Made by a program: the position numbers and the translations under genes | Shown here: piece by piece, positions 49,185 to 64,000 of the stretch | Layout of the letters: each line of letters opens with the position of its first letter | Numbering within the stretch: position 1 is the first letter of the stretch | Notes under the pieces: generated by a model | Told to the model about the DNA's origin: nothing | The model's database searches: none | Seen by the model: only the letters and a program-made list of their open reading frames with translations | From: a virus | Virus record (IMG/VR): IMGVR_UViG_3300037258_000375 | Location: 32,001-96,000 of that record | Length of the DNA: 64,000 bases | Strand: one strand, 5' to 3'

Positions 49185-49186
49185 TT

Positions 49187-49263
49187 TGGTAGACGTGCGG
49201 AGCATCGAACTCCGAACCTTGCTCTTATAAGGAGCATGCTCTAGCCGATTGAGCTACACGTCT
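49187..49263 (-). tRNA. tRNA-Ile(TAT)
   Basis: Stem TGCTC/GAGCA, loop CTTATAA, CCA. Confidence 0.88.
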
Positions 49264-49274
49264 ATAAAACTTGT

Positions 49275-49434: not shown

Positions 49435-49436
49435 CT

Positions 49437-49505
49437 TGGTGGCACGCCCGGAGTCGAACCGGATTACGTCCTTATGAGAGACGCTTCCCGCCTTGGGTAC
49501 GTGCC
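49437..49505 (-). tRNA. tRNA-Met(CAT)-like with short D-arm
   Basis: Loop CTCATAA, TTCGA T-loop, CCA; about 69 nt. Confidence 0.65.
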
Positions 49506-49510
49506 AAATC

Positions 49511-49584
49511 TGGCAGGGGATGAACGATTTGAACGCTCAAATTCCGGGTTGGAGCCGGACGGTTTGCATTAAGCCTAATCCCCC
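49511..49584 (-). tRNA. tRNA-Trp(CCA)
   Basis: Loop CTCCAAC, GCCA end. Confidence 0.8.
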
Positions 49585-49920
49585 AAAAGTTATCTTTCGA
49601 TGACAATTAGCGCAGATGAGATCGCATTTTTGAATCTCGGCATAGATACGCGTCTTAGAGATACCCATCACCGCAATTGCATACGACACATCAAAGCATT
49701 TTTCCTCGTCGGGTCGGTGATGGAATTCGAGGCACGCCCAAAATGACTCCTCACAATACAAGCAGTGCTTATCCTTTTTTAAGGACCGTGACCATTCAAC
49801 CCGCTTTGCCTTTTGAGCTATGGCGCGATCAATATAAGGCTGCTTATTGTTCCGGTAATGTTTCCTCCGGTAGCCTCGCAGTTTTTCTTGATTCGCGTCA
49901 CGCCACGCTTTCGTAGACAT
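49537..49920 (-). CDS. HNH homing endonuclease associated with tRNA-Trp
   Basis: C..C......LEFHH, EI.KC.LICANCHR. Confidence 0.85.
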   Translation of the reverse strand: MSTKAWRDANQEKLRGYRRKHYRNNKQPYIDRAIAQKAKRVEWSRSLKKDKHCLYCEESFWACLEFHHRPDEEKCFDVSYAIAVMGISKTRIYAEIQKCDLICANCHRKITFGGLGLMQTVRLQPGI

Positions 49921-49936
49921 ACAAAAAGTATAGCGC

Positions 49937-49975
49937 TTTGGAGACCGGCAGTGTAGCCGCTGCGCTTACTCCCCT
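49937..49975 (-). pseudogene. orphan 5' half of tRNA-Trp
   Basis: AGGGGAG..CCGGT CTCCAAA ends at the anticodon loop just before the HNH gene. Confidence 0.7.
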
Positions 49976-49992
49976 ATGATGTCAAAGACCAA

Positions 49993-50020
49993 CAAAAAAC
50001 CCTCTCCTGAGAGAGGGTCC
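49993..50020 (-). terminator. attenuator terminator of tRNA operon A
   Basis: ACCCTCTC-TCAG-GAGAGGGT followed by a U-run; 5' arm can alternatively pair with leader GAGGGT. Confidence 0.85.
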
Positions 50021-50041
50021 GGATTCCAATCTGTCTACAGA

Positions 50042-50128
50042 TTAGGAACCACAACCCTCACGCACGATTCCCCAAATGACCCGCTTGGTCCCGGTCATGG
50101 TTCTCGCCGATTTGGTTATGGTCAGCAC
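50042..50128 (-). CDS. leader peptide A (MLTITKSARTMTGTKRVIWGIVREGCGS)
   Basis: GTG 7 nt after TTGCAT-N17-TACGCT; codons match downstream tRNAs. Confidence 0.8.
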   Translation of the reverse strand: MLTITKSARTMTGTKRVIWGIVREGCGS

Positions 50129-50307
50129 GAAAATAAGCGTACACCTGTTCGCATTTCGATGCAAGCGGAAAATGGAAATATTCTTGTCAAGCGGAAAATC
50201 GACACAGGCTTATCAGTGACTTGCAGACGAAGAAATGCGAAAACCCCTGTATTTATGCATGTTTGCAAATGCTCGCAATTAAAATTGACGTATCGGAGGA
50301 AACAACT

Positions 50308-50659
50308 ATGGATGGACAGATCAGCAAGTACGACCGGGTACGCGGCGGTCTTCATAACGTCGCGATGTTTACCAGGGCGAGCACAGTCAAAGACCGTGCA
50401 AGCCATCACCGGCAAGTCAGAAACGTTCGTCGTCGAGACAGCGCGGTTCGAAGACGAGGGAGATACCATCTTCATTGAGGCGCTCGATGAGAATGGCCTC
50501 ACACGGCTCGCACTTCCACCAAAGGTTGCTGCGCTCATTGCTTCCCAGCGTGACAGTTTGACGGCGCGCCGCCGCTCGAAGGCCGCACAGCGAATTGCCC
50601 AGGAGCGCAAGGACCGAGGTGAGCTACCAGGGTTCATGCGCAAGAAGAGTACTGAATAA
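50308..50659 (+). pseudogene. hypothetical gene split by a +1 frameshift at ~50388-50392
   Basis: GGAGG-ATG ORF MDGQISKY..STVK continues as TVQAITGK.. in another frame after GTCAAAGACC. Confidence 0.6.
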
Positions 50660-50701
50660 AAGTACCGTTGCCTCCCCCCAAAAGCGCGGTATCATGGGCG
50701 C

Positions 50702-51238
50702 ATGACAAACATTGAAGAAAAGGCGATGGTGTTTGCCACGCGAGCCCACAGAGGGCAGTTGAGAAAGTATACGAACGATCCGTACATTGTGCATCCACTG
50801 ACGGTCGCGGAGATCGTACGCGCCGTTCCCAACCACACAGAAGAGATGATCGCCGCCGCGTGGCTGCACGATGTCAAGGAAGATTGCGGCGTTCAACTGC
50901 CGGAGATCGCGGTAGAGTTCGGCTGGCCGGTCGCCACCATGGTTGATGAACTCAGCGACGTCTCGACCCACTTCGATGGCAACAGGAAGGCACGGAAGGC
51001 CATCGATCTACGACACACAGCGAAGGCGTCTCCGCAGAGCAAGACGATCAAGCTGGCCGACCTCATCGACAACACATCGAGCATCGTGCAATTCGACCCG
51101 AAGTTTGCGAAGGTCTACCTGCCGGAGAAGCTGGCCCTTCTCGAAGTGCTCAAGGATGGCGATTCCGAACTCTGGAAACGAGCCTACAGGTTGGCGCGGA
51201 GAAACGTCTCCCACACCGCGATGTTCTCCAGCCGATAA
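50702..51238 (+). CDS. HD-domain small alarmone hydrolase (SpoT/MESH1-like)
   Basis: AH.GQ.RK...PYIVHP, AAWLHDV.ED, IKLADLIDN. Confidence 0.85.
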   Translation: MTNIEEKAMVFATRAHRGQLRKYTNDPYIVHPLTVAEIVRAVPNHTEEMIAAAWLHDVKEDCGVQLPEIAVEFGWPVATMVDELSDVSTHFDGNRKARKAIDLRHTAKASPQSKTIKLADLIDNTSSIVQFDPKFAKVYLPEKLALLEVLKDGDSELWKRAYRLARRNVSHTAMFSSR

Positions 51239-51495
51239 CGCCGCCTCTGCCTGGAGCCTGGGACGAACCCCACGGCGCGCACGTCCAGGCCGTAAGCTCG
51301 GCATCGAGTGACCGAGTCGGCTCCCTGGAAGTCACCGAGAATCTCTGCGATCTGCGTGGACACCACCGCATCGTTGCTTCTGAAAAGCTCGATGAGCACA
51401 GGAAGAGAACTCTCCACGGACTGCTTCATGCTTCCCTCAAAAAAAGGGCTGCGGGGATTGGCCCCGCAGCGAAGTTGATCGGTGTTGTTGTAATA

Positions 51496-51786
51496 CTAGA
51501 TCGACTCGCCAAGGTCTGCCAACTCCTTGTCGATCTGCGCGCGCTTCTCCTGAGCAGTCTTAAGGCTCTCGCGCTCTGACTTCAACTGACGAATACGCGT
51601 CGCACGACGGTCTTCCATACGTGAAGAAATCTCACGGGAAATGGTATTCAGGTTATCGGAAACGTACTCCGGAACCGTGACCTTCTGTGCCTCGAACTCG
51701 CTACGAAGCTGCTTACCGAATGCTGACAGTGCGACAAGCTCATCGATGTCAGACTCTACATTGAAGTTCTTGAAATCCTGAAGCAT
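51496..51786 (-). CDS. helical protein downstream of Ro60
   Basis: AAAGGAGG RBS; frame also open from 51903. Confidence 0.65.
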   Translation of the reverse strand: MLQDFKNFNVESDIDELVALSAFGKQLRSEFEAQKVTVPEYVSDNLNTISREISSRMEDRRATRIRQLKSERESLKTAQEKRAQIDKELADLGESI

Positions 51787-51899
51787 GGTCTTCCTCCTTT
51801 CCGCGATCCTCTGCTTCGAGAGATCGACAAAGATATTCTTCTTCGGAACCCTATTGCGGCTCGGGTTCTCATGCTTCTTGTTGTGGTAGTTCACTGCCA

Positions 51900-53408
51900 T
51901 CACACACCTACCAGTTCCGTATCCTTCAGCACATCGCTGAGCGACTTCAACGGCGTCGCCATGATCTCGTCAACGAGGCTGTACTGGTTCGACCGCATCG
52001 TCTGCACAAGGTTCGGGATCGCATAATAGTCCGTCTTGCCGTCGCGAAGATCGAACGTCTGCATCTCGATACCCAGTGCATTCATGCGGTAGCTCAAGTT
52101 ATCTGTACCGCCAGCGCAGTGGTAGAAGTAGACCGGCACGTCCTTATCCACGAACGTCGCATACTTCTTATACACATCCGGGAAGTGAGGTGCCCTATTC
52201 TCCTCGCCGTCCGACACGATGGCAATGCCGTCAACCGCGATCTTCTCCGCCAGCATCCGATTCAGACCGCAACCGATGGACGTCGCCGAGCCAGTCTTGA
52301 TGTGCTTCGTCGCGGCGATGACCTGATCCAGCGAGCAACCGGTGACATCTACAGTCATCGGAGTTTCGTCGAAGAACACGAGATACACCTTGCCCTTCAC
52401 GAACTGCGCCAGAGACGCCGCCACATGCTTACCGAACTCGATGCTCTTCTCCATGCTCGGGCTGCGATCCACCAGCACAAGCCAATCGCCAGCCGGACCG
52501 CCAGCCTTCGCGATCTGCTTCGCCTGCAAGCCGCGCAGCTTCTCCTTCAGGCCCTCATCCGTGACGCCCTCGACTGCCTGGGTCGTCTTGAGCGTGTTCT
52601 GCGTAGACGTTGCCGCCTTCTGAAGTGCCTGCTCAAGCGCACCACGCAAAGCTGGGTTGGTCTTGACGCCGAGCTTCTCCAACATCTTCATGCTGGTCGC
52701 TAACTCGGTTGCCGTCATTTGGCCGATGAGGGCCAACACAAGGTCCGGCTCCTTCGCCTTCGCACCAAGAGCACCCGCAGCGATCAAGAACGGCACCTTG
52801 AACCTGATGATTGCGCCCGCCGCCTCAACCGGAGACATGTCCTTGAGGTGTGCCACTGCTTCGAAGACAGAGCCCTTCGGCAAAGCCAGCTTGGTCACAA
52901 CCACGGTACCGTCGATCTTCTCCTTCCACTGGCCGGAGATGACCGCAGCGACGCGGCGGTTACCAGGACCGGTACGTGAGAGCGCGTACAGCGCCTTGAG
53001 CACGCTGCGGTGCTGGATCGCGATGTGATCCCAGTTCCGTGACTCTTCCTTCTGCCGGAGATAGGCGCGAATCACGCGATCCATCTGCGACATCTTGCCC
53101 TTCGGACGAATCTCACGCACGAAATCGAAGGCGCGGCGCAACTCACGCGGGCCGAGCGCAGCCATGTGCGCGACGCTGTTGTCGAGTAATTCGAGATCAC
53201 TCTCGAACGCGAGGCCGAGAACCGGCAACGCGACCTTGCTGTCACGAATCTGACCATGCCGCGCGTTCCAGGCGATCAAATGCTGGAAGAACTCGCCATC
53301 CTGCGCAATGGCCTGCTTGCCAACCTCGACATACTCGCCGAGCTTGCCGTGAGGAGACTTACTCAACTCGCTAAAAACCTTGGAGCGCGTTAAACCCTGC
53401 TTCTCCAT
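51900..53408 (-). CDS. Ro60/TROVE-like RNA-binding protein with C-terminal vWA domain
   Basis: About 500 aa; helical N-terminal region then LVLVDRSPSM, T..GC, IVSDGEEN; adjacent tRNA-mimic RNA array. Confidence 0.75.
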   Translation of the reverse strand: MEKQGLTRSKVFSELSKSPHGKLGEYVEVGKQAIAQDGEFFQHLIAWNARHGQIRDSKVALPVLGLAFESDLELLDNSVAHMAALGPRELRRAFDFVREIRPKGKMSQMDRVIRAYLRQKEESRNWDHIAIQHRSVLKALYALSRTGPGNRRVAAVISGQWKEKIDGTVVVTKLALPKGSVFEAVAHLKDMSPVEAAGAIIRFKVPFLIAAGALGAKAKEPDLVLALIGQMTATELATSMKMLEKLGVKTNPALRGALEQALQKAATSTQNTLKTTQAVEGVTDEGLKEKLRGLQAKQIAKAGGPAGDWLVLVDRSPSMEKSIEFGKHVAASLAQFVKGKVYLVFFDETPMTVDVTGCSLDQVIAATKHIKTGSATSIGCGLNRMLAEKIAVDGIAIVSDGEENRAPHFPDVYKKYATFVDKDVPVYFYHCAGGTDNLSYRMNALGIEMQTFDLRDGKTDYYAIPNLVQTMRSNQYSLVDEIMATPLKSLSDVLKDTELVGV

Positions 53409-53437
53409 AGTGTCACCGTCTCTTTCAGTTGTGGTAG

Positions 53438-53989
53438 TTATGGGAGTGTACGAGTTCTGAGATATTCGAGAAGGTCGATATAGCTGATCTTCTTCAACTG
53501 GCACCACGCCACCGCCGACATACCACCTTTGTCTTTGTTGCATTTTCGGCACGCAGACAGGTAGTTACTCGGATCATTCAAGCCGCCCATCTCCAACGGA
53601 TTGAAGTGGTCAATGGTCAATTGAACCTTGCCCATCGGCAGACTACAGTACACACATTTACAGCCGTCAGCCATCCATACTTTCTGCTGGACGGCACCGG
53701 AAATGTCGTAGCGTAGCTTCCGATGGAAAATCTTCTCCATCGAGCCTTGGACAAGAATCTCAGGATCGTCCGATCTCTGGAGCCAGTCCGACCATTCTTC
53801 GGTGGTAAGAATTCGAACTGACGCTACAGTAGAAAGACCACGCGCGTTCGGCAATAAGAACACGGCTTGCGCGCCTTCGCCGCCGATCACGACACCTTCA
53901 ATTTTGAGGATGGAGCCTACGTCGCCGTGGAGAGCGGGACGATGGCGCAATTCTAGCTGATAAAATCTTGAGTCACTCGCCATCGTCAT
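53438..53989 (-). CDS. HNH nuclease with N-terminal extension
   Basis: C.YC, LTIDHF.P...GG.....NYLSAC..CN..KG. Confidence 0.8.
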   Translation of the reverse strand: MTMASDSRFYQLELRHRPALHGDVGSILKIEGVVIGGEGAQAVFLLPNARGLSTVASVRILTTEEWSDWLQRSDDPEILVQGSMEKIFHRKLRYDISGAVQQKVWMADGCKCVYCSLPMGKVQLTIDHFNPLEMGGLNDPSNYLSACRKCNKDKGGMSAVAWCQLKKISYIDLLEYLRTRTLP

Positions 53990-54007
53990 CCCCCCGGATC
54001 GAACTTA

Positions 54008-54141
54008 CGTGCTGTAGTCGATATGGCTTAGATTTTGCAGAGCCTTTCGGCCCGCGCCCCCCGTATATGAAGCCGGTATGGTGGTGGAAGGGGCCGGGGT
54101 TTCCCCCGGAACAAGATCATGTACCCATGTCAGTCAGCACG
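54008..54141 (-). ncRNA. Y-RNA-like unit G
   Basis: GCTGACTG..GGTACATG ... CGACTACAGC terminal stem. Confidence 0.7.
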
Positions 54142-54356
54142 AACTTAATGCAGCGGCCAAGGAGGCAATTCGTAGCGGTAAAACCTGCTGTTGAGCTTCA
54201 GAGAGTCACTCGGCTCCGCTACACCCTTCTATTCCAGCCTCGGTAGGTCACCCCGCCGCTGCAAAACAAACTTGATCGCGGTACCTTCTATGGCTCTCGA
54301 AGAGTACCTGTTTGGGATCGCATCCTTCTAAAGCCTTCCCTCGGGCACCGCGAACT

Positions 54357-54470
54357 TGGCTGGGGAACTCGGTTACGAGCCGAGAGCCTTCTTGCGAAGG
54401 CGCAAAGACATGTATCCAAGTCAGTCGGCAGTAACGCCGTAGTCGATCTGGAACTTCTTCAGTTCCCCAG
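54357..54470 (-). ncRNA. Y-RNA-like unit F (permuted; acceptor stem plus CCA)
   Basis: TGGGGAA/TTCCCCA-GCCA ends; internal CGACTACGGC-loop-GCCGACTG..TACATG. Confidence 0.7.
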
Positions 54471-54547
54471 TAAAACTTGCTGGCGGGAGTTGCCTCGGCA
54501 CCTTCCACTCCCGGATCGCCTCGCGGCTGTCGAGCCAGCTAAATTAT

Positions 54548-54664
54548 TGGGGGCGGGTCTTGGATTCGAACCAAGATGCTCAGTTGATGAGACTTCGCTT
54601 TGCCATGTACCCGAATCTGTCAGCGTTTCCGCTGTAGTCGCTCCGGATTGTTTCATAACCCGCC
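54548..54664 (-). ncRNA. Y-RNA-like unit E (permuted; acceptor stem, T-arm, CCA)
   Basis: GGCGGGT/ACCCGCC-CCCA ends; CGACTACAGCG-GAAA-CGCTGACAG..GGTACATG; GGTTCGAATCC. Confidence 0.75.
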
Positions 54665-54673
54665 CCAACTTAC

Positions 54674-54796
54674 TGACCTGTAGTCGAAGTGCTATTCCCT
54701 TTCGGGAACGGAGTTGGAATTGAACCAACAACCTTCTGCTTAAGAGGCAGATGCTCTACCAAGTGAGCTATCCATGTAAGCACTTCAGTCAGGCCA
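54674..54796 (-). ncRNA. Y-RNA-like unit D carrying tRNA-Lys(CTT)-like D, anticodon and T arms
   Basis: CCTGACTG..CTTACATG, TAGCTCA..GGTAGAGC, CTCTTAA, GGTTCAATTCC, CGACTACAGG. Confidence 0.78.
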
Positions 54797-54809
54797 TTCT
54801 CAAACTTAC

Positions 54810-54946
54810 TGGGCTGTAGTCGATCTGCTTGTGTTGCTAAGCGCTCTACCACTGAGCTAATCCCGCATAAAATTATGGGGCGGGATGAAGGATTCGAACC
54901 TCCGACCTCTGCCTTGGAAGGGCATGTAAGCAAATCAGTCAGCCCA
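54810..54946 (-). ncRNA. Y-RNA-like unit C carrying a circularly permuted tRNA-Gly(TCC)-like domain
   Basis: GCTGACTG..CTTACATG, CTTCCAA, T-arm, acceptor 3' strand+CCA, loop, acceptor 5' strand, D-arm, CGACTACAGC. Confidence 0.8.
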
Positions 54947-54953
54947 TACTTAC

Positions 54954-55029
54954 TGGCTTGTAGTCGTTCCGCATTGCCTTTCGGCGTGTTCGTGTTCAAA
55001 GCGATCATGTATGCGAAACAGTCAAGCCA
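54954..55029 (-). ncRNA. Y-RNA-like unit B (minimal)
   Basis: GCTTGACTG..ATACATG ... CGACTACAAGC. Confidence 0.7.
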
Positions 55030-55042
55030 TACTCAAAATTTC

Positions 55043-55159
55043 TCCGCTGTAGTCGTCTGGCAACCCCTTGCGGGGACACGGTCGGATTTGAACCGACTGC
55101 TTTTCATCCAAATTGAAATGTGGGACCAACCCACACATGTAAGCCAAACAGTCAGCGGA
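55043..55159 (-). ncRNA. Y-RNA-like unit A with T-arm
   Basis: GCTGACTG..CTTACATG, GGTTCAAATCC, CGACTACAGC; promoter TTGCGC-N17-TAAGGT upstream. Confidence 0.72.
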
Positions 55160-55196
55160 AACTCAAACTCAACTTCACAACCTTACCACAACCCTG

Positions 55197-55862
55197 TCAT
55201 GCGCGCAATTTCTTTTTCTGCGCCGATCTATGGAGGGGCCGGAGGGAGTCGAACCCACGACCTGTTGATTCGTAGTCAACCGCTCTATCCGTCTGAGCTA
55301 CGGCCCCGTGGTCGGGACTGTGGGATTCGAACCCACGACCACCTGTTCCCAAAACAGGAGCGCTACCTGACCGCGCCCAGTCCCGATACTCTAAGTCTTG
55401 GTCGGGGAGAGGGGATTCGAACCCCTGCATAGCCGAGCTACCTGCCCTTTGGTACGCGCCCAAGGATTCGAACCTCGGACCTCCGTCAGACTGCAACGGC
55501 GCTCTGACCACTGAGCTAGGCGCGTATGAAACATTCTTCTCACTCCACAGTTTATAGTTCTGCAAGACCGCGCGCTGTTCCTCATCGAGGGGCACGGTCA
55601 CGACCGCTGTGAGACCAAGGTCATTGTCCGGCTCATAGAAAGCGGACGCATCGATGTGATGCAGCTTGAGCTTGGCAATGACTCTTTCGAGAGCTTTTTT
55701 GTTGGGGACGCCGATCAACACGAGGGACGGAACAAGATCATCCACACTCTGTGAAAGTGTGTAGGCCATCTCAAATGTCGCATGATTGGTCTGAATGATC
55801 TGCTGCGCCAAGGTCAGGTCTTGGCGGACGAACAAGAAGTAGTATGGATTCCCCTAATGCAT
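55197..55862 (-). CDS. peptidyl-tRNA hydrolase (Pth2-like), TAG at codon 3, frame runs through tRNAs
   Basis: YYFLFVRQDL..Q...Q..HA, F.EPD...LTA, L..YKLW; ATG CAT TAG in frame. Confidence 0.7.
55231..55307 (-). tRNA. tRNA-Arg(ACG)
   Basis: Loop CTACGAA, CCA. Confidence 0.92.
55309..55385 (-). tRNA. tRNA-Pro(TGG)
   Basis: Loop TTTGGGA, CCA. Confidence 0.92.
55399..55447 (-). pseudogene. tRNA-Pro-like remnant lacking the anticodon arm
   Basis: T-arm and CCCCGACCA end present; about 49 nt. Confidence 0.55.
55450..55525 (-). ncRNA. tRNA-like RNA with non-canonical anticodon loop
   Basis: Intact acceptor, D and T arms and CCA; loop GCAGTCT lacks U33/R37. Confidence 0.7.
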
Positions 55863-56157
55863 GTGAGTATCTTTCACCTGTTCTAAAATTTTGTCAAGGG
55901 GAATTTTCTAAACACGCCCTCATGAATCACATCTAGCTGGTAGCAAGTGATACCTATTTGTCTCGCTTTCACTTTCATGATGAGGGTTCGGCTGTTGGAA
56001 TCCCATTCTCCGACATCGATGCCGATGACGTACTTACTTGGAGGCGGGAGCGTGACCATGCCCGCACTCACCGGTTCCAATGCCGCGACAGCAGCCAAGG
56101 GCGCGAGAGCTTTCGCGCCAGCAAGACCAGCTATCGATCTGAGAAAGCCGCGCCGAT

Positions 56158-56397
56158 TCACGACGACATCCCAATTCCTACTCTCACATCGGGCAGTTTG
56201 CGCAAATTCTCAGCAGCATTCACGGCCTGCGCAGCGTCCTCGTAGCGGAAGACAAGATCACGGGTATAAGTGCCCGAGAGCATACAGCCGGAGTCACACT
56301 TCACTGGGCCATCAGGCACGTAACCGGCAGCTACGAAGATCGCTTCATCGGTCGCACTCTTGATGCCGCCGTCGTACTCGACAATTACGTTGTGCAT
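56158..56397 (-). CDS. hypothetical protein
   Basis: GGGAG RBS; DSGC..TRDL.F. Confidence 0.5.
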   Translation of the reverse strand: MHNVIVEYDGGIKSATDEAIFVAAGYVPDGPVKCDSGCMLSGTYTRDLVFRYEDAAQAVNAAENLRKLPDVRVGIGMSS

Positions 56398-56415
56398 GAA
56401 GACTCCCGGAGAGAT

Positions 56416-56490
56416 TGGTAGAGCGTGCGGGACTCGAACCCGCGTCTTAGCCTTGAAAGAGCCATGTCCTAGCCGCTAGACGAACACTCC
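56416..56490 (-). tRNA. tRNA-Glu(TTC)
   Basis: Loop CTTTCAA, CCA. Confidence 0.9.
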
Positions 56491-56696
56491 ACAACTTACT
56501 CTTCTTTGTTTAAGGCATCAAGCGCCTTCGACGGAGCCTGCTTGATCCTCAAACGGAATCTGCACCATGCCTCGAATGCGCTACCGGCCATCAGCATAAT
56601 AAACTCGGCACCGATGCAGATGAACATCAAATCAATGAGGCCGTTAAAGAGCCATTTCTGGAAATAAGATACGTCCATGCTTCACCCCCGTGAACT

Positions 56697-56771
56697 TGGT
56701 AGGGAGTACGGGAATCGAACCCGTGTGGCAAGATTGAGAATCTTGCATCCTAGCCGCTAGATGAACTCCCC
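56697..56771 (-). tRNA. tRNA-Glu(CTC)
   Basis: Loop TTCTCAA, CCA. Confidence 0.9.
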
Positions 56772-56994
56772 AAAAATCAGGCAGAACCAGTATATCCCGA
56801 ACCTGCACTTGTAATCACAACGGAAGCAATCCGGCCATTCGCATTGAGGGTTACCTCGGTCCCAACCCGGCGAGCCTCCCAGGCACGAGCCGATCTCAGA
56901 AAGATATTCCGGATCAGAGCCGCTTTCCGCCGCCTCTGAATCCGCGCCAAGACCTTCTTGCGCTTGTGCTTCTTTTTGCGATTCTCGGGCATAA

Positions 56995-57348
56995 AAATCG
57001 AGGCCGGGTATTGCTTTGCATGGAACCCGGCGAACCACGGATAGCTGTTTTTAGGCAGCCATCGGCAACGCATTATCCTCAGCGTTTATTGGTCTGCATC
57101 CCTTTTGCGGGCGGTAGCAGGGTTCCCGGCACGAAGCTGGAGTTCATTGATCTCGTCGAAACCTTGACGCCCCCACCAAGAAACACTGATTGAGAAATGT
57201 CTAGCCTGTCCACGAAGCTTTTTGACCAGCTTCGCCCTCGTAGCGCCGGAATCGAACCGACGACGCAATTAGTGCTTCTTGGTGGAGGCGGCGGGAGTCG
57301 AACCCGCGTCCGAAATCAACTTCCTTCAGTGTTGACGTGCGTAACTCA
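56995..57348 (-). ncRNA. ssrA: circularly permuted (two-piece) tmRNA; tag (A)AEDNALPMAA
   Basis: Acceptor piece ..GGACGCGGGTTCGACTCCCGCCGCCTCCACCA (to 57280) precedes coding piece GGGGGCG..TTTCGAC (from 57174); G3:U70; tag ORF 57083-57051. Confidence 0.85.
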
Positions 57349-57373
57349 AATACTGCTCTCCTTTTCTTGAAAA

Positions 57374-57916
57374 TCATTGGACTTGAATATACACCGTCTT
57401 GTCTTCTGACGGGACGATTAAAAAGCTCCGGTCTGGTAAATCCGGAATCCCATGGATCAATCGCTGTCGTAGGGATTCGTGATGTACCCCATAATTCTTA
57501 GCTACCGACCGCATGGACTCACCAGACCTGATCCGCTCTCTCGCGATAGCAAGCTGGTCTTCTGAAAATCTCCTGGTCACCTCGCGTCTTCTGCGCCCAC
57601 GCGCCGGGTCATACGAGGTAATCGCTTTATCTATCTGCGATTGGCGACGAATCGACATCAATGGCCTGAGCAACTGCATCATCTGCAATATCCTCAAGCC
57701 GCCAATGTTGACAACCCAGGAATCTTTCCACTGAGGCTTACGCTTTTTCTTTCGAACTTTGTGATACTTCGCGTTTAACAACCTTGCGATTCGCGCGATC
57801 ACATCTTCATCTGTCATATTGCATGATATGCGTGGGCAATTTGGCTTAGAAGGAGGGCTACATAGAAATGACCCCTCCCCTTCAAGAATGCCAGCAAGCC
57901 AATGAAGATCATGCAT
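57374..57916 (-). CDS. LAGLIDADG endonuclease with C-terminal HTH
   Basis: WLAGILEGEGSF, MTDEDVI, PLMS.RR..QI, SMRSVAKNYGV. Confidence 0.82.
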   Translation of the reverse strand: MHDLHWLAGILEGEGSFLCSPPSKPNCPRISCNMTDEDVIARIARLLNAKYHKVRKKKRKPQWKDSWVVNIGGLRILQMMQLLRPLMSIRRQSQIDKAITSYDPARGRRRREVTRRFSEDQLAIARERIRSGESMRSVAKNYGVHHESLRQRLIHGIPDLPDRSFLIVPSEDKTVYIQVQ

Positions 57917-57924
57917 CAAAATTA

Positions 57925-58000
57925 TGGCGCGACCGACCGGGGTTGAACCGGCGACCTCTTGATCGACAATCAAGCGCTTTTCCATCTAAGCTACGGTCGC
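57925..58000 (-). tRNA. tRNA-Asp(GTC)
   Basis: Loop TTGTCGA, GCCA. Confidence 0.9.
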
Positions 58001-58097
58001 GTGTGCCCAAATAGGTTCAAGCTTTCGCCGCTCCAATATGCGTTCGCGGAAACGCCTAAGCGCTCCAGACCCTACTAGCATTACCCTTGGGCTTAAT

Positions 58098-58174
58098 TGG
58101 TTGCGGGCGCACGCTCCGACCGTGCCGATGTGGTGGTTATGAGCCACCCGAGACGCCTTTTCTCCATGCCCGCG
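58098..58174 (-). tRNA. initiator-type tRNA-fMet(CAT)
   Basis: C1:A72 mismatch, loop CTCATAA, atypical T-loop; promoter TTGCGC-N17-TACATT. Confidence 0.75.
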
Positions 58175-58210
58175 TTTCATAATGTACCACGGAATGGGAA
58201 TGCGCGCAAA

Positions 58211-58705
58211 TTACTCCAGCCCTGGACCCTGGGACAGATCGAGCGCTTCGCCTCCCGCGCGACGCTGAATGCCGTACTTGCTGAAATCGATGTGCCACGA
58301 TGGCCATCCCTTCTCAATGCGCTCCAATGCTCCAGCCCATGCAGCTTCCATCGTGTCGTAGAACGTTTGGCTCGCACTCACGACAAGATAGCTACCGCCT
58401 TGGACGTTTGGCGGGATTTCTTCGCCGAGGATGACAAATCCAAGTTGTCCGATTTGCTTTGCATGGGCTTGTGGAAAGTCATTTGCTACTCGGTTTGCAG
58501 CCGCGATGGACAGCTTTTGTTTGACAAAGTCTGGATCACAAACGTGAGGATGCCACTCAGTGTTGGGATAGATGGAACCTTGAGGATTGGTGAACGCGGT
58601 GCCGCCCCACTCAGTACCCATTTTGACGATTAGGATACCGCAGTTCGGGCAATCGTGGGGACCGTAGTAGACGATCCTAGAGTTACGAAAGGTGATGGGT
58701 GACAT
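58211..58705 (-). CDS. hypothetical protein
   Basis: AGGAG RBS; CPNCG..H.C. Confidence 0.6.
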   Translation of the reverse strand: MSPITFRNSRIVYYGPHDCPNCGILIVKMGTEWGGTAFTNPQGSIYPNTEWHPHVCDPDFVKQKLSIAAANRVANDFPQAHAKQIGQLGFVILGEEIPPNVQGGSYLVVSASQTFYDTMEAAWAGALERIEKGWPSWHIDFSKYGIQRRAGGEALDLSQGPGLE

Positions 58706-58759
58706 AGATTTTCTCCTGCGTAAGTAGTTCCGCTTTCACGGAATGACAGGAGTCTAGCA

Positions 58760-58885
58760 CAAAAGGAAAGACCCCGCCGAAGCGAGGCCGTTCCTTTGCC
58801 CAATAGGTTGTAGCTACCTAACCGGATCAGTCGTTTGTGTCGTTGTCCATCCCCATTTTCTGCCGGGTTGACCGACCCTTCTGCG
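58760..58885 (-). ncRNA. putative stand-alone small RNA with intrinsic terminator
   Basis: TTGAGA-N16-TAGAAT promoter; GGGTCGGTC/GACTGATCC stem; TTCG hairpin plus U-rich tail. Confidence 0.45.
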
Positions 58886-58906
58886 AATCATTCTATCACG
58901 TATTTT

Positions 58907-60103
58907 CTACGTCTCAAGAATTTTCCCGATCTTTACGGCGGTCGGATGGTCGCCGATCTCCAGCGAGATCGAGGATGAATCCGTCATCGTCAGCGGACCT
59001 TCTTGAGCGAATGGTTCATAGACGGCGACATAGCAATTCGACGGCAGCGTGAGGATCACTGAGACATTCGGATTGGTGATGTCCGTGTTCGTCGTCAAGT
59101 TGTAGCAGCTAATCTCCTGCCACAAGAACAATAGCCATGTGCCGTCCGATTGTTGGAGTAGAAGGCTCGAAACAGATGCACCGCTTAACGTATAATTCAA
59201 CGCGGTCAAGGCCGGACTCGTGTTGGTCGGAAGCAGTGTGAGCAAGTTTCTCACTGCTCGATATACTGGCTTCACGGTACCATCCCAGCGGATCATGCCC
59301 CAGGCATAGGTCGCATTCGTGAGAGTGGGATCGCTGCCTTCGTCCTGCAACTCGTAGAGATAAGTACGCACGATACCGCGTGAGAAGTTGTTGAGCAGCA
59401 AACGCAGTATGTACTTCGCGGCGGCGATCTCGGAGACTCCGGGCTGTCCACCTGTCTGGTGAATCGCGTTGTGATATCCACTCTCGGTTGCCATGATCGG
59501 CTTGGTTCCGTTAATGGCTTCGAGTTGTGTCGGCTGGGCTGGAGTGCTCGTAAAGCCGACCGTGGGCATGTTTCCAGCCGGGTAGTAGTGCCAGTTCCCG
59601 AAATCGCACTCCATTAGACCCGCCGCCGCAGCGCTTGAAGGATATGCCATCGAAGGAGCGATTACCGGCATCGCAATGCCCTGAGCCATGGTCTTGGCGA
59701 ATCCATATAGCGGGGTCTGGTAGGCAGCGAGTACGGCTGGCCAGTTCGCTTCACCGCTCACGTCCATCTCGTTCGGGCCTTCGAGGCATTCGATGCTCAT
59801 TCCGCTCTTCCAATAGAACTGGTTCAATAGGTCGGCGGTGAGTGTACCGAGGTCTGAGCGCGGATCGACGACCGCATCGAACGAGATGCCCTGCCTTGCG
59901 ATGAGTGTCCAGGTTGTGAAGAGTGTGTTGTCGTAGTCGTCGTTCAACGTGTGAAGGCCATCTCGCACGTGGACCAGACCGAGGGCCTTGAGTTGTGTCG
60001 CTACGAGAAGAGCATTCCCATAATTCAGATTGAAGTAGTTTAAGTGTGTGTTGACGCCAACACTCTGGAAGAGCGCGGTAGAAGTGGAAAACGGAACCGG
60101 CAT
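58907..60103 (-). CDS. clan GH-A glycoside hydrolase-like protein
   Basis: GVNTH, HVRDG, EGPNE, N.H.Y, ATESGY, YLYEL.D. Confidence 0.75.
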   Translation of the reverse strand: MPVPFSTSTALFQSVGVNTHLNYFNLNYGNALLVATQLKALGLVHVRDGLHTLNDDYDNTLFTTWTLIARQGISFDAVVDPRSDLGTLTADLLNQFYWKSGMSIECLEGPNEMDVSGEANWPAVLAAYQTPLYGFAKTMAQGIAMPVIAPSMAYPSSAAAAGLMECDFGNWHYYPAGNMPTVGFTSTPAQPTQLEAINGTKPIMATESGYHNAIHQTGGQPGVSEIAAAKYILRLLLNNFSRGIVRTYLYELQDEGSDPTLTNATYAWGMIRWDGTVKPVYRAVRNLLTLLPTNTSPALTALNYTLSGASVSSLLLQQSDGTWLLFLWQEISCYNLTTNTDITNPNVSVILTLPSNCYVAVYEPFAQEGPLTMTDSSSISLEIGDHPTAVKIGKILET

Positions 60104-60135
60104 AGGTCACCTCCGATGCCGGTGATTATAGCTTA

Positions 60136-60226
60136 TGGTGCGTCGGACAGGATTCGAACCTGCAATGTCATCAAAGATGATCCAGATTTACAGTCTGGTA
60201 GTGTCCACCGTCTCACCAGCCGACGC
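60136..60226 (-). tRNA. tRNA-Tyr(GTA)
   Basis: Loop CTGTAAA, long V-arm, CCA. Confidence 0.9.
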
Positions 60227-60688
60227 ATCTCTTAATCTTGTTTTGTAATTCGCTTTATTCCTTGCTTTGCTTCTGCAAAACTTACATTCGGTCTGAAGGC
60301 CGCGTCGTTTATGTTTATTCTTCGTAAAATGTCCAACCGGAGCAAAATGTTCACCAAGACAGCACCATGCCATTCCCGGAGGATCAACTACTCGCAGGTG
60401 CGCCTGCGAGTCTAAGACTTTACGTTCTCGCAGTGTCTTTTCCAGATGACAACGATGGCACCGCACCCTACATTTTGCTAATTCAATTGTTCTTTTTCTT
60501 TCTCCCCAACTCCAGATCGCAGAACTGATTTTTGTTTTTGGATTGTTGTGATCTAGCTCAAGATTGTCCCATGATCTACAGTCAGTGCAAGGGCCATTTT
60601 CTACGAACCATTTCCGTCGTCTCTTCTTTACGACTTCTTCGTACCACCGCTTCTGCGCGGCGCGCTGTTTTTCAATATCTCTCGCCAT
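60188..60688 (-). CDS. HNH homing endonuclease in tRNA array
   Basis: GPC.DC....LELDH.NP..K, ELAKC.V.C..CH..KT. Confidence 0.85.
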   Translation of the reverse strand: MARDIEKQRAAQKRWYEEVVKKRRRKWFVENGPCTDCRSWDNLELDHNNPKTKISSAIWSWGERKRTIELAKCRVRCHRCHLEKTLRERKVLDSQAHLRVVDPPGMAWCCLGEHFAPVGHFTKNKHKRRGLQTECKFCRSKARNKANYKTRLRDASAGETVDTTRL

Positions 60689-60730
60689 ATTGTCATTATA
60701 ACAAAACTGGCGGATACTTAACGAACTAAC

Positions 60731-60823
60731 TGGAGGAAGCGGCGAGATTCCAACTCGCGGTGCCGATCTCTCGGACACTCCCGTTTTCAAAACGGGTGGT
60801 TTAACGCACTCACCCACGCTTCC
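60731..60823 (-). tRNA. tRNA-Ser(TGA)
   Basis: Loop TTTGAAA, long V-arm. Confidence 0.88.
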
Positions 60824-60828
60824 AAACT

Positions 60829-60915
60829 TGGCGGTAGCGACAGGAGTTCAACCTGCAAAGGCTTTCACCTTGTCCCGTTTCGAGCGGGGTGGGCCTAGCA
60901 ATGCCCAACGCTACC
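60829..60915 (-). tRNA. tRNA-Ser(CGA)
   Basis: Loop CTCGAAA, long V-arm, GCCA. Confidence 0.88.
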
Positions 60916-60916
60916 G

Positions 60917-61003
60917 TGGCGGGAAGCAGACCACTCGAAGGCCACTCCTTGCGGAGCCATTCGGTTTCCAACCGATGCCGCAGACCTCTGCGGTTTACTT
61001 CCC
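60917..61003 (-). tRNA. tRNA-Ser(GGA)
   Basis: Loop TTGGAAA, long V-arm, GCCA. Confidence 0.88.
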
Positions 61004-61007
61004 TAAT

Positions 61008-61094
61008 TGGCGGAGAGCCGAGAACACGATTCCCAAACCCGAAGGTTCCATCTGTTTAGCAAACAGCGCCGTCAGCCTCAACGGTTGACTCTCC
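61008..61094 (-). tRNA. tRNA-Ser(GCT)
   Basis: Loop TTGCTAA, long V-arm, GCCA. Confidence 0.88.
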
Positions 61095-61101
61095 ATACAA
61101 C

Positions 61102-61179
61102 TGGTGCTCCCGGTCGGATTCGAACCGACACTGTCTTCGTTTTGAATGAAGCGCCTCCTGCCGATTGGGCTACGAGAGC
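61102..61179 (-). tRNA. tRNA-Leu(CAA), short V-arm
   Basis: Loop TTCAAAA. Confidence 0.88.
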
Positions 61180-61181
61180 AT

Positions 61182-61260
61182 TGGTGCCTGCGAGGGGATT
61201 CGAACCCATACTGTTCTGATCCTAAGTCAGACGCCTCCTGCCAAATTGGGCTACGCAGGC
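61182..61260 (-). tRNA. tRNA-Leu(TAG), short V-arm
   Basis: Loop CTTAGGA. Confidence 0.88.
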
Positions 61261-61269
61261 ACATAAAAC

Positions 61270-61347
61270 TGGTACACGGGGTGAGATTTGAACTCACACT
61301 GCCACGCCCCTCAAGCGTGTGCCTCCTGCCGTTTGGGCTACCCGTGC
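61270..61347 (-). tRNA. tRNA-Leu(GAG), short V-arm
   Basis: Loop TTGAGGG. Confidence 0.88.
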
Positions 61348-61348
61348 A

Positions 61349-61426
61349 TGGTACTCCGGATGGGATTTGAACCCACACTAACACGGACCTGAACCGTGTG
61401 CCTCCTGCCGTTTGGGCTACCCGTGC
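61349..61426 (-). tRNA. chimeric tRNA-Leu(CAG) duplicate
   Basis: 5' part identical to Leu(GAG), 3' part identical to Leu(CAG); mismatched acceptor stem. Confidence 0.6.
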
Positions 61427-61427
61427 A

Positions 61428-61504
61428 TGGTACTCCGGATGGGATTTGAACCCACACTAACACGGACCTGAACCGTGTGCCTCCTGCCGTTGGGCTACCG
61501 GAGC
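61428..61504 (-). tRNA. tRNA-Leu(CAG), short V-arm
   Basis: Loop TTCAGGT. Confidence 0.88.
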
Positions 61505-61514
61505 AAATTAAATT

Positions 61515-61591
61515 TGGACAGCCGAGGGAGAATCGAACTCCCGCATGATCTGATCTGCAATCAGACGCCTTACCGTCTTGGCTATCGGCTG
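61515..61591 (-). tRNA. tRNA-Cys(GCA)
   Basis: Loop TTGCAGA, U73 discriminator. Confidence 0.88.
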
Positions 61592-61592
61592 T

Positions 61593-61669
61593 TGGTACCC
61601 GTCGAGGGATTCCAACCCCCATCCAAGCCGTCTTAAGCGACTCCGCTCTTGCAATTGGCGTACACGGGC
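61593..61669 (-). tRNA. tRNA-Leu(TAA)
   Basis: Loop CTTAAGA; somewhat divergent body. Confidence 0.75.
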
Positions 61670-61671
61670 AC

Positions 61672-61705
61672 AAACTAAAAACCCCCCGAATCATCGGAGG
61701 GCTGG
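61672..61705 (-). terminator. attenuator terminator of tRNA operon B
   Basis: GCCCTCCGA-TGAT-TCGGGGGGT followed by a U-run; CCAGCCCTC can alternatively pair with leader GAGGGTTGG. Confidence 0.82.
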
Positions 61706-61728
61706 AAACTTTCGACCGTGCTCAGTCG

Positions 61729-61791
61729 CTAGTCAACCCAACCCTCAGAAGAGGAGAGATACAGGCACGAACTGAGTGACAAGGTCTTCAC
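61729..61791 (-). CDS. leader peptide B (MKTLSLSSCLYLSSSEGWVD)
   Basis: GTG 7 nt after TTGACA-N17-GAGCAT; twelve consecutive Leu/Ser/Cys/Tyr codons. Confidence 0.82.
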   Translation of the reverse strand: MKTLSLSSCLYLSSSEGWVD

Positions 61792-61812
61792 GAAAATGAT
61801 GCTCTCACAAAT

Positions 61813-62073
61813 CTATTTTGCTGTCAACGCCAATTTTCTGCGCTCCAGCCATTGCTCAAGAGTCAAGCCGCCTGGATGGTCCGGATCGTAATGCATCCAT
61901 ACAGTCCATCCTCCTTTGGCTTTTTCGGGAAATGGGTGGCACGGGCATTCCGGCGAGAGTATATGCAGACATGACGGAACACGCTGTCCATCTATCTCGA
62001 TCAAAGGAACCACGTGATTACATCCGGTGCCGTCGTCATCCTCACTGCGAACAACGCCCCAATGTTGCATCAC
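61813..62073 (-). CDS. hypothetical protein
   Basis: HVVP..H....CPCHP. Confidence 0.55.
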   Translation of the reverse strand: MMQHWGVVRSEDDDGTGCNHVVPLIEIDGQRVPSCLHILSPECPCHPFPEKAKGGWTVWMHYDPDHPGGLTLEQWLERRKLALTAK

Positions 62074-62256
62074 TGCACCTGTGGCACTCTCGTCCTTGAA
62101 TTCGGCGGCGGCGGCGGCGGACCCGGAATTTCATGCACATGCACATCGTGGCCCGCGTAGCGAAGATCGCCGAGCTTGCGTTTACATGCCTGCCCCTCGT
62201 CTGCGCCGCAGCAAGGGCACCAGAGGGATAACCGATTGGGTACGTACCGGGAGTGT

Positions 62257-62508
62257 TCATCCATTTTGTTTTTTCGCCTTCGTCAGTTCATCGAGTGCCT
62301 GCACCAAATCTTCCATCGAGACCGGCTCAGAATCTTCGGCAAGATAGGCGTCGATCTCTGTCTCTGCTTCCTCGCCGGAACAGTTGACGACGTGACCTTC
62401 AAGCGCGCTCTGTCCCACAAAGAAAACACTGCACGTGTTGTCGTCGATATCCTTGATTGCCGTGACATACTGTGCAGCGATTCGGAAGCCTTTGACCAAG
62501 TGCAGCAT
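62257..62508 (-). CDS. hypothetical protein
   Basis: Acidic 83-aa ORF. Confidence 0.5.
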   Translation of the reverse strand: MLHLVKGFRIAAQYVTAIKDIDDNTCSVFFVGQSALEGHVVNCSGEEAETEIDAYLAEDSEPVSMEDLVQALDELTKAKKQNG

Positions 62509-62559
62509 GATGCCAATCTACACCCAGCGGTCACGGTCGGCAATGATTTTGGTGATACC

Positions 62560-62940
62560 ATGGCTCCGATGCCGCAAGAATCAAAAGCTGAAAGAGAAGC
62601 GTGGACCGCACTTGTCGAAGGCCGCGCGCCCAAGAAAGAACCGAAGTACCACAATGAACGTAAGGGCAAATACGCCTCTGGCTACGAGGCCGAGGTCGCG
62701 GCCAAGCTCTGGACACTTCTCGAAGCTGGCAAGATCGAGGGGCTCCGCGAGCAAGTTCCCTTCGAGCTTGTGCCGCGTCGCGGCAAGATGGGGCCGGTGA
62801 TCTACGTCGCTGATTTCACGTTTTACGAGGACGGGAAGTGGCGCGTCTGCGACGCAAAAGGTTTCGCGCACAATCGGGTTTACATGCTCAAAAAACGGAT
62901 GATGTACCTCGTCCACGAGATCGAGATTGAGGAACTGTAA
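62560..62940 (+). CDS. DUF1064 family PD-(D/E)XK nuclease
   Basis: KY.N, S..EA, I..L..QVPFEL, YVADF.Y, DAKG, Y.LKK. Confidence 0.85.
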   Translation: MAPMPQESKAEREAWTALVEGRAPKKEPKYHNERKGKYASGYEAEVAAKLWTLLEAGKIEGLREQVPFELVPRRGKMGPVIYVADFTFYEDGKWRVCDAKGFAHNRVYMLKKRMMYLVHEIEIEEL

Positions 62941-62983
62941 TTTCTCCTTGCGTTCGCCGATACTCTGCGCTAGTCTCTTCTGC

Positions 62984-64000
62984 ATGGCCGCAATTAAACC
63001 ACTTCTCATTATTTCAGATGCAGTCTCGGCCCCTACAGGGCTCGCCCGGATCACCCGCGATCTCTCAACACGTATTCACCAGAATCTCAAGGATGTTTAC
63101 CGTGTCGCCACGTTTGGGTACGGCGCGCCCGGATCATGCAGGTTCGGTTTTACACAATACGCTGCGAATGACGTTGACAACTTCGTTTTGGGTCAGTTGC
63201 CCGAGGTGTGGCATGACTTCGCCGGACAGGAGCAAGGGGTCGTGCTGTGCATTTGGGACCCGAGCCGCCTCGGCTGGCTCTCCACACCACATACGAGTGA
63301 CTTCCTCAAAGATTTGAAGTATCAGGCTCTCCGGGTCTGGCTCGAACGCGCTCCTTTTAAGAAATGGATTTACGCCCCCGTAGATGCGGAAGGACCGAAT
63401 AACCGGCTTACTTTTTCGATCATGAAGTCGCTGTTTGGATTCGACCGCATTCTTGCCTATAGCGCGTGGGGAGCGGGAGTGATCGAACGCACGATGAGTA
63501 CAGGCGAGGCACGCAGTCGCAACCTCACTTCACTACCTCACGGAATCGATGGAGGCGTGTTCTCTCCATCTCCGGATCGTTCTCTGGCACGCTCTGTGTT
63601 TAACAGCATCACGGGAGCGACATCGATCATTACGAAATACAAAGAGATCGAGGCAGACGAGGTGCTCGTCGGCATCGTCGCAACCAACCAAGCACGCAAG
63701 GATTGGGCACTCGGTATCGAGACCGCCGCGATACTGTCAAAAGAGATGAAGGTGCGGTTGTGGATTCACACGGACGCCCTAGCGCGCAACTGGGATATTC
63801 TCGGCCTTCTTATCGATCATGGGATGCTCGGAGAGCAGACTGTCTTGTCGAGCGGGTACATCGCGGATGAACAAATGGCCGAGGCTTATTCTGCTTGCGA
63901 TGTCACTTTGGGTATCGGACCGGAAGGTTTTGGCTATCCGATTTTCGAATCGATCTTCTGCGGAACTCCATGCGTCCACGGTAACTACGGCGGCGCTCCA
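62984..64000 (+). CDS. glycosyltransferase family 4 (3' truncated by window)
   Basis: LLIISDA...TGLARI, PHGID, IVATNQ.RKDW, Y.ACDV, EGFGYPIFES..CGTP. Confidence 0.85.
   Translation, partial: MAAIKPLLIISDAVSAPTGLARITRDLSTRIHQNLKDVYRVATFGYGAPGSCRFGFTQYAANDVDNFVLGQLPEVWHDFAGQEQGVVLCIWDPSRLGWLSTPHTSDFLKDLKYQALRVWLERAPFKKWIYAPVDAEGPNNRLTFSIMKSLFGFDRILAYSAWGAGVIERTMSTGEARSRNLTSLPHGIDGGVFSPSPDRSLARSVFNSITGATSIITKYKEIEADEVLVGIVATNQARKDWALGIETAAILSKEMKVRLWIHTDALARNWDILGLLIDHGMLGEQTVLSSGYIADEQMAEAYSACDVTLGIGPEGFGYPIFESIFCGTPCVHGNYGGAP

Follow-up and report, generated by a model that had tools for sequence, protein, structure and literature searches.

Blocks of transfer RNA (tRNA) genes in a soil phage are preceded by short leader units, and we consider it likely, judging from their sequences and from RNA folding, that these units are ribosome-mediated leader-peptide transcription attenuators that sense the supply of the very tRNAs they control. 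The units were studied in a stretch of 64,000 nucleotides (nt), hereafter the window, which covers positions 32,001 to 96,000 of the IMG/VR virus record IMGVR_UViG_3300037258_000375, a 105,298-bp record with a GC content of 54% from a soil metagenome. A look-up of sequencing runs placed this DNA in three runs, all of DNA and one of them probably the source soil metagenome; no RNA run was listed. All coordinates below are those of the window, and (-) denotes its minus strand. Each unit combines a promoter, a short open reading frame (ORF) and an intrinsic terminator, and the codons of the ORF correspond to the tRNAs encoded downstream. The tRNA output would probably be raised only when the leader codons are read slowly.

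Leader unit ahead of the Leu/Ser/Cys/Tyr tRNA block

Regulated block 1 (60136-61669, -) comprises the genes for Leu(TAA), Cys(GCA), Leu(CAG) in two copies, Leu(GAG), Leu(TAG), Leu(CAA), Ser(GCT), Ser(GGA), Ser(CGA), Ser(TGA) and Tyr(GTA), that is, six Leu, one Cys, four Ser and one Tyr tRNA with 11 distinct anticodons. A preliminary description of this DNA had given the same tRNA content, which was confirmed; an HNH endonuclease gene that it left unmentioned (about 60688-60188, -) also lies inside the block, between Ser(TGA) and Tyr(GTA). Ser(TGA) was the only Ser tRNA of block 1 called by ARAGORN at default settings and by the Rfam tRNA model (E ≤ 1). The Ser CGA, GGA and GCT genes (60829-61094, -), each with an encoded CCA end, were recognised by eye and under relaxed ARAGORN thresholds. 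Together with a transfer-messenger RNA (tmRNA), the whole tRNA set of about 33 genes is located on the minus strand from 61669 to 46267.

Directly ahead of block 1, leader unit 1 (putative attenuator 1) begins with a putative promoter (61799-61827, -), read from the sequence, in which the -35 hexamer TTGACA (61827-61822) and a TGn-extended -10 hexamer GAGCAT (61804-61799) are separated by a 17-nt spacer. Leader ORF 1 (61729-61791, -) starts with GTG (61791-61789) 7 nt past the -10 hexamer and without a Shine-Dalgarno sequence, which is a leaderless geometry, and runs through 20 sense codons to a TAG stop codon (61731-61729). All elements of the promoter and leaderless ORF that had initially been proposed are present on the minus strand. 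Codons 4-15 (61747-61782, -), referred to here as sensor codons, are twelve Leu, Ser, Cys or Tyr codons in a row, again as first described, and no two of the first eight are read by the same tRNA of the block.

The ORF is followed by an intrinsic terminator (terminator 1, 61671-61703, -) with a 10-pair stem (61703-61680), the loop TGAT and a subsequent T-run. Its hairpin lies 27 nt past the stop codon of leader ORF 1, is formed in the minimum-free-energy (MFE) fold of the full leader and has an equilibrium probability of 0.87. As terminator 1 ends only about 10 nt before the first tRNA, Leu(TAA), whose start is at 61669, the block would be transcribed only via read-through; the gap is too small for a second promoter. 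Codons 16-18 of the ORF contain GAGGGTTGG (61738-61746, -), which would lie under a ribosome that reaches the stop codon. This sequence is complementary to CCAGCCCTC (61697-61705, -), which overlaps the 5' arm of the terminator, through eight Watson-Crick pairs and one G-U pair. The two sequences are the putative 5' and 3' strands of an antiterminator, and the 9-bp pairing claimed at the outset is both predicted by folding and subject to co-variation, as described below.

Related units in other phage contigs

Relatives of the phage were reached via a Ro60-like protein, which led to an 83-kb contig, and via two short leader DNA cores, which led to contigs of 16-138 kb; most matches to the cores were chance matches and were removed by context. 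The resulting survey set contains 24 non-redundant units of three types from 10 related phage contigs. A protein search of viral_contigs with the 86-amino-acid upstream protein and the 398-amino-acid downstream protein revealed no relatives, and blastn against the cultured-phage collection gave nothing beyond tRNA-level matches to Streptomyces phages.

All related phage contigs are syntenic across the tRNA island, and each has a leader unit ahead of both the Leu/Cys/Ser/Tyr block (block 1) and the Trp-to-Gly block (block 2). In the units of these two blocks, 20-33 nt separate the ORF from the terminator. A third block, block 4 (Asn, Gln, Gly, Thr, His, Ala, Phe, Pro and Arg), is accompanied by its own matching leader unit in four contigs. 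A correspondence between the upstream ORF and the tRNAs in homologues, set beforehand as a test, was found in 10 contigs and for three leader types.

The architecture of the units is well kept. Leader ORFs span 18-28 codons, those orthologous to leader ORF 1 being 18-27 codons long, the distance from stop codon to terminator is 20-47 nt, and a terminator is present in all 24 units. Most of the 24 leaders share one promoter layout, namely a consensus -35 hexamer, a 17-18 nt spacer, a -10 element of the form nAnnAT or TAnnnT that is usually preceded by TG, and 6-10 nt to the start codon. Leaders start 6-10 nt past the -10 hexamer, or behind a Shine-Dalgarno sequence when the start is farther away. 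The latter arrangement is seen in the block-2 leader of contig G004, where the start is far from the promoter and a Shine-Dalgarno sequence is present instead; chromosomal copies of the leader have a possible GGTGA. In the ORF part of the block-2 leader alignment, most insertions and deletions are multiples of three. The peptides of block-1 and block-4 leaders keep their composition and not their sequence, and substitutions between orthologues stay within the codon set. That block-1 leaders diverge in sequence yet remain rich in Leu, Ser, Cys and Tyr speaks for codon identity, and not the peptide or RNA sequence, as the target of selection.

Match between leader codons and downstream tRNAs

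Across the six reading frames of the genome, no other run of Leu, Cys, Ser and Tyr codons is as long as the 12-codon run of leader 1; the runner-up has 8 codons. Altogether, 12 of the 19 codons of leader 1 belong to the block set (p=4e-5 versus genome codon usage). The match also exceeds what results from shuffling the bases of leader 1 itself (p=0.005); the scores of the other two frames are 7 and 6. Cognate codons exist in leader 1 for 11 of the 11 block anticodons, as compared with a null mean of 3.7 (p=0.0006).

The same holds across the survey set. Leu, Cys, Ser and Tyr codons make up 62% of block-1 leaders versus a background of 20%; Trp, Met, Ile, Lys, Arg, Val, Thr and Gly codons account for 84% of block-2 leaders (background, 41%); and Asn, Gln, Gly, Thr, His, Ala, Phe, Pro and Arg codons reach 86% in block-4 leaders (background, 48%). 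All non-cognate combinations of leader and block in the 24 units are at or below background. The cognate-codon fraction of the 24 leaders is 0.75 in frame versus 0.33 and 0.31 out of frame, and every one of them beats composition-preserving shuffles (median p=4e-4). Of the 24 leaders, 18 cover all anticodons detected in their block and the remaining six fall short by one each, against a null coverage of about 40%. Within the amino-acid sets, codons that the block tRNAs can read are over-used as well (324 of 404, versus 271 expected).

A paralogous unit in the same genome

A second unit, putative attenuator 2 (49997-50164, -), has the -35 hexamer TTGCAT (50164-50159), the -10 hexamer TACGCT (50141-50136), a GTG start at 50128, a 28-codon ORF that extends to 50042 and a terminator at 50020-49997. 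It is followed by an HNH gene and by block 2 (49584-46267), which carries Trp, Met, Ile, two Lys, three Arg, Val, Thr, Ile and Gly tRNAs. The interior of leader 2 differs from that of leader 1, as its codons stand for Thr, Ile, Lys, Arg, Met, Gly, Val and Trp, the amino acids of block 2: 21 of 27 residues fall in this set, 11 of 12 anticodons are sampled, and the rare codons ATA, AGA and CGG each find a matching tRNA in the block. Neither leader matches the tRNA block of the other.

Outside this interior the two units are alike. Their promoter register is identical, as are nine bases around the GTG start; the start region shares ATTTTCGTG followed by nnG ACC, GAGGGTTG occurs at the same place near the ORF end in both leaders, and the terminator 5' arm of attenuator 2 also contains CCCTC. 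These shared ends around a rewritten middle suggest that the two units of this genome arose by duplication, followed by recoding of the sensor codons.

Two further observations concern this region. The HNH gene, a homing-endonuclease gene at 49537-49920 (-), is inserted between attenuator 2 and the first block-2 tRNA, and it occupies the same position in the relative G001. As it lies 3' of the attenuator and before the first tRNA, it would be co-regulated with block 2; an HNH gene is likewise reported to be co-regulated with tRNAs in the Anabaena array (PMC8421152). Upstream, a 15-nt motif, ATTTTCCGCTTG plus ACA or CAT, occurs twice within 50159-50197 (-), the copies being 25 nt apart and each having a -35-like hexamer; this repeat may represent tandem promoters or an operator ahead of attenuator 2.

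The element at 58917-58770 (-) was also considered as a third attenuator and was rejected. Its promoter, TTGAGA-16-TAGAAT, is followed by an RNA of about 95 nt, whose 9-codon ORF has many Met, Asp and Asn codons, and by a strong terminator; downstream are a 165-codon ORF and the genes for tRNA Met, tRNA Asp, tmRNA and tRNA Glu. Its leader is untranslated over 37 nt, its coverage is 2 of 4, and no orthologue is present in the relatives. It may be an attenuator of recent origin, or else a small RNA.

Predicted antiterminator switch

For folding, the ribosome was modelled as a 28-nt footprint and transcripts were truncated before the 3' arm of the terminator. In the truncated transcripts, the terminator 5' arm finds its partner in the final codons of the ORF and the region of its stop codon; in leader 1 this is the pairing of GAGGGTTGG with CCAGCCCTC. 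The cognate duplex of leader 1 (-19.3 kcal/mol) ranks 1st of 24. Duplex energies were -16.8 kcal/mol for cognate versus -12.95 kcal/mol for non-cognate pairs (permutation p=5e-5), and the advantage of cognate duplexes within the three families gave p=0.0004, 0.003 and 0.08. Since cognate pairing is better within orthologue families, the antiterminator pairing co-varies.

The predicted pairing depends on the position of the ribosome. The mean probability that the 5' arm pairs upstream was 0.81 with the ribosome on the sensor codons versus 0.47 with the ribosome at the stop codon. The two positions differ by 0.34, as against 0.03 for shuffled leaders (Wilcoxon p=5e-6). Conservation and folding support, at the level of sequence, the attenuator logic of the trp, his and ilv type that the preliminary description had put forward.

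Proposed mechanism and alternative explanations

In the mechanism that we favour, transcription would proceed from a sigma-70-type promoter, and the RNA would begin at or within a few bases of the leader start codon. A ribosome would load on this leaderless start and trail the polymerase through codons 4-15, where it would need every tRNA species encoded downstream. When all of these tRNAs are available, the ribosome would arrive at the stop codon and mask GAGGGTTGG, the terminator would form, and transcription would stop about 10 nt before the first tRNA. If any one tRNA is scarce, whether not yet made, uncharged or destroyed, the ribosome would stall upstream and leave GAGGGTTGG free; it could then pair with CCAGCCCTC, no terminator would be formed, and the polymerase would enter the block. 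The tRNAs of the block would in turn speed up leader translation and close the block, which would amount to negative feedback on the tRNA supply. The read-through upon ribosome stalling is a proposal, and the physiological trigger may be the depletion or cleavage of host tRNAs, for example by anticodon nucleases, as the preliminary description suggested.

Several points weigh against this mechanism. From the DNA we infer where transcription starts, that the leader ORF is translated and that transcripts end at the terminator. In attenuator 1 the -10 hexamer is poor (3/6) and the -35 hexamer overlaps the last codons of an upstream 86-codon ORF (61813-62073), and GTG at a leaderless 5' end is a weak initiator in E. 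coli. Some leader codons lack a detected array tRNA, for example the Cys codons in G006 and G009 and Thr(GGT) in block 2 of G001; tRNA detection was imperfect. In block-2 leaders, one stretch is invariant and codon 2 is conserved as Gln, which is more than codon sensing requires; the search pattern accounts for part of this invariance. Moreover, orthologous leaders are not independent of each other, and the number of independent inventions is about three.

The folding results contribute further points of this kind. Little or no switch was predicted in 5 of 24 leaders, and two block-1 leaders with longer ORFs pair poorly with their cognate terminator arm. In full-length equilibrium folds of the leaders of three relatives, the position of the ribosome was without effect, because their terminators are very stable. 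When no ribosome is placed on the transcript, the model antiterminator forms in many leaders (mean 0.69; leader 1, 0.85), so that an untranslated transcript may read through instead of terminating, unlike that of trp. A possible anti-antiterminator was located in leader 1 (61721-61776, -), where CTCAGT within the sensor codons (61776-61771) pairs with ACTGAG just past the stop codon (61726-61721); this helix encloses the antiterminator strand and is part of the MFE fold. Different sequences pair at the same positions in the orthologues, with p=0.055 in the block-1 family and no signal in the other two families, which weakly supports a sensor-codon/post-stop helix that would hide the antiterminator in untranslated RNA.

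Other explanations of the units were weighed on the same data. The structural evidence from folding and pairing would fit equally well if the leader were a general translation-stress sensor, in which any slowing of ribosomes by antibiotics, toxins, starvation or host shut-off opens the block and the codon match is inherited or incidental. The long tRNA array of Anabaena, which is silent until chemically unrelated antibiotics impair translation (PMC8421152), could be read in the same way, as could the several leader codons outside the block set. A codon match, however, would be superfluous in a non-specific sensor. Here each of the three leader types fits its own block and no other, most leaders sample every block anticodon, and orthologue substitutions stay within the set; we therefore regard a general sensor as unlikely. 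Less likely still is a terminator that is overcome by a phage or host protein or RNA, as in processive antitermination of the lambda N/Q or HK022 put type, or one that acts as an insulator, ending the upstream operon and stabilising the tRNA precursor, with the ORF being no sensor in either case. Terminator 1 would end a three-gene operon that lies 110 nt upstream of it; similarly, the block-2 promoter of G001 begins 3 nt after tRNA-Tyr, so the block-2 terminator also ends block 1 there. The motifs common to leaders 1 and 2 could be protein-binding sites, and a direct repeat is found upstream of leader 2. These explanations leave the conserved ORF, its frame-specific composition and the anticodon coverage unaccounted for, as well as the location of the arm-pairing sequence in the last codons, under a terminating ribosome. 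In addition, an Rfam search of 44000-64000 (E ≤ 1) gave no match to a known RNA family at the leader, neither to the Trp, His, Leu or Thr leaders nor to the T-box.

That the short ORFs encode functional micropeptides, such as a small hydrophobic peptide rich in Leu and Ser, and stand ahead of the tRNAs incidentally is very improbable. A peptide function is suggested by the nearly invariant stretch of the block-2 leaders across contigs, but this invariance is partly imposed by the search pattern and the stretch doubles as a conserved hairpin; block-1 and block-4 peptides conserve composition rather than sequence, and three unrelated compositions each fit their own block. We give hardly any credence to a chance ORF in a pyrimidine-rich spacer ahead of an ordinary gene terminator. 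Polypyrimidine runs do readily give Leu and Ser codons, and the promoter of attenuator 1 scores below the threshold of a consensus promoter scan. The run is nevertheless the longest in the genome, it withstands shuffling (p=0.005) with the other frames at background, and comparative data contradict chance, the unit being kept in 10 contigs along with two further leader types. Attenuation by a ribosome that senses the tRNA supply remains the explanation that we hold to be likely.

Chromosomal arrays and other phages

The block-2 leader core also matches 33 contigs of metagenome-assembled genomes (MAGs) of Acidobacteriaceae and Terracidiphilus, some of them 200-990 kb long. These chromosomal loci include L231 (G015:C14:148000-167999) and L232 (G013:C1:24000-43999), together with 31 other genome_contigs loci. 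In the two MAG contigs that were inspected, ordinary cell genes flank a compact array that agrees with the phage in gene order and in its leader units, and RtcB adjoins one chromosomal array. Three MAG genomes, both inspected ones included, were scanned and gave 66-72 tRNA matches each, mostly dispersed outside the array. Acidobacteriaceae are a likely host clade of the phage. Because the same units occur in chromosomal arrays of this family, feedback on the tRNA supply is a safer statement of their role than counter-defence. At 10880-11060 of L232, the block-4 leader ORF has lost its stop codon and runs through the terminator, so that some copies of the unit seem to be decaying.

Cultured phages were considered as well. 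The annotated tRNA region of phage T5 has promoters directly ahead of tRNAs and small ORFs, and no promoter-ORF-terminator units were found in it. In phiCbK, annotated terminators lie directly 5' of tRNA blocks, and a 45-codon ORF, half of which is made up of Pro, Lys, Leu and Ser codons, precedes a Pro/Lys/Leu/Ser tRNA block. In the same phage (L235; JX100813, 47000-53000), a promoter-like TTGACAGC, 7 nt and GATTTGTGAGAGC stand ahead of a small ORF upstream of Glu/Asp tRNAs. This arrangement resembles the promoter of attenuator 1; the hosts are unrelated.

Neighbouring genes of the tRNA island

Between the tRNA blocks, the segment 51900-57372 (-) forms an RNA-repair and ribosome-rescue neighbourhood. 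It includes the gene of the Ro60-like protein (phrog_850, 51900-53543), Y-RNA-like and tRNA-like modules with weak YrlA matches at 54838-55341, and a permuted tmRNA at 56960-57391. Elsewhere in the window, a PurZ-like adenylosuccinate synthetase (phrog_1211, 23309-24445, -) shows about 40% identity to the versions of cluster C mycobacteriophages, and judging from this gene the phage DNA may contain 2-aminoadenine.

Relation to known systems and significance

The units share their logic with the trp, his, leu, pheA, thr, ilvGMEDA and pheST attenuators, in which a leader ORF with regulatory codons is followed by an intrinsic terminator and a mutually exclusive antiterminator that is masked by a ribosome at the stop codon, with stalling leading to read-through. 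The multivalent thr and ilvGMEDA leaders likewise mix codons for several amino acids. Those attenuators, however, control biosynthetic enzymes or a synthetase and not tRNA genes, and they use runs of one or two amino acids, whereas here one or a few codons are devoted to each of 8-14 tRNA species. They also differ in that the phage leader start is leaderless and bears no sequence relation to the Rfam leader families, and the behaviour of the untranslated transcript may differ too. The sequence evidence supports a mechanism of a known kind, applied to a new gene class with a new sensor design. Our literature search returned no account of attenuation of tRNA genes; its coverage was incomplete and absence is not proven.

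Other systems resemble the units in part. The polycysteine short ORFs of mycobacteria (bioRxiv 10.1101/834739) are also leaderless ORFs at the 5' end that act as ribosome-stalling sensors for downstream genes, but they sense one amino acid and act on translation via a sequestered ribosome-binding site. The phage unit is not of this type, since it has an intrinsic terminator with a T-run, followed by untranslated tRNA genes. T-box riboswitches are transcription attenuators that read the state of a specific tRNA as well; they bind uncharged tRNA directly, with no ribosome involved, and their targets are synthetase and amino-acid genes. With their supernumerary tRNAs, horizontal spread and HNH genes, the phage and Acidobacteriaceae arrays fit the long tRNA arrays (L-arrays) exemplified by the trn operon of Anabaena PCC 7120, which is silent until translation is impaired (PMC8421152). 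Control of the Anabaena array has been ascribed to a hypothetical repressor acting on direct repeats in the promoter, and leader ORFs, terminators and attenuation have 0 mentions in that paper (PMC8421152).

On balance, it seems probable that the units belong to a widespread class of self-referential tRNA gauges, in which each phage or L-array block is gated by a leaderless mini-ORF with one codon for each tRNA species. Any single shortage, caused by host shut-off, codon-usage mismatch, starvation or anticodon nucleases, would open the block, its products would close it again, and new gauges would be made via duplication and recoding. For annotation, such units would account for small hypothetical ORFs and seemingly misplaced terminators in phage tRNA regions.

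The reason why phages carry tRNA arrays is still debated. The regulation of individual tRNA genes is largely unknown (PMC8421152). If the proposed mechanism is true, tRNA output would be set by demand, codon by codon, and one mechanism would join phage arrays, bacterial accessory arrays and translational-stress responses. The units would serve as small natural sensors that report whether chosen tRNAs are available, and they would also provide the missing mechanism by which silent tRNA arrays switch on under translational stress.

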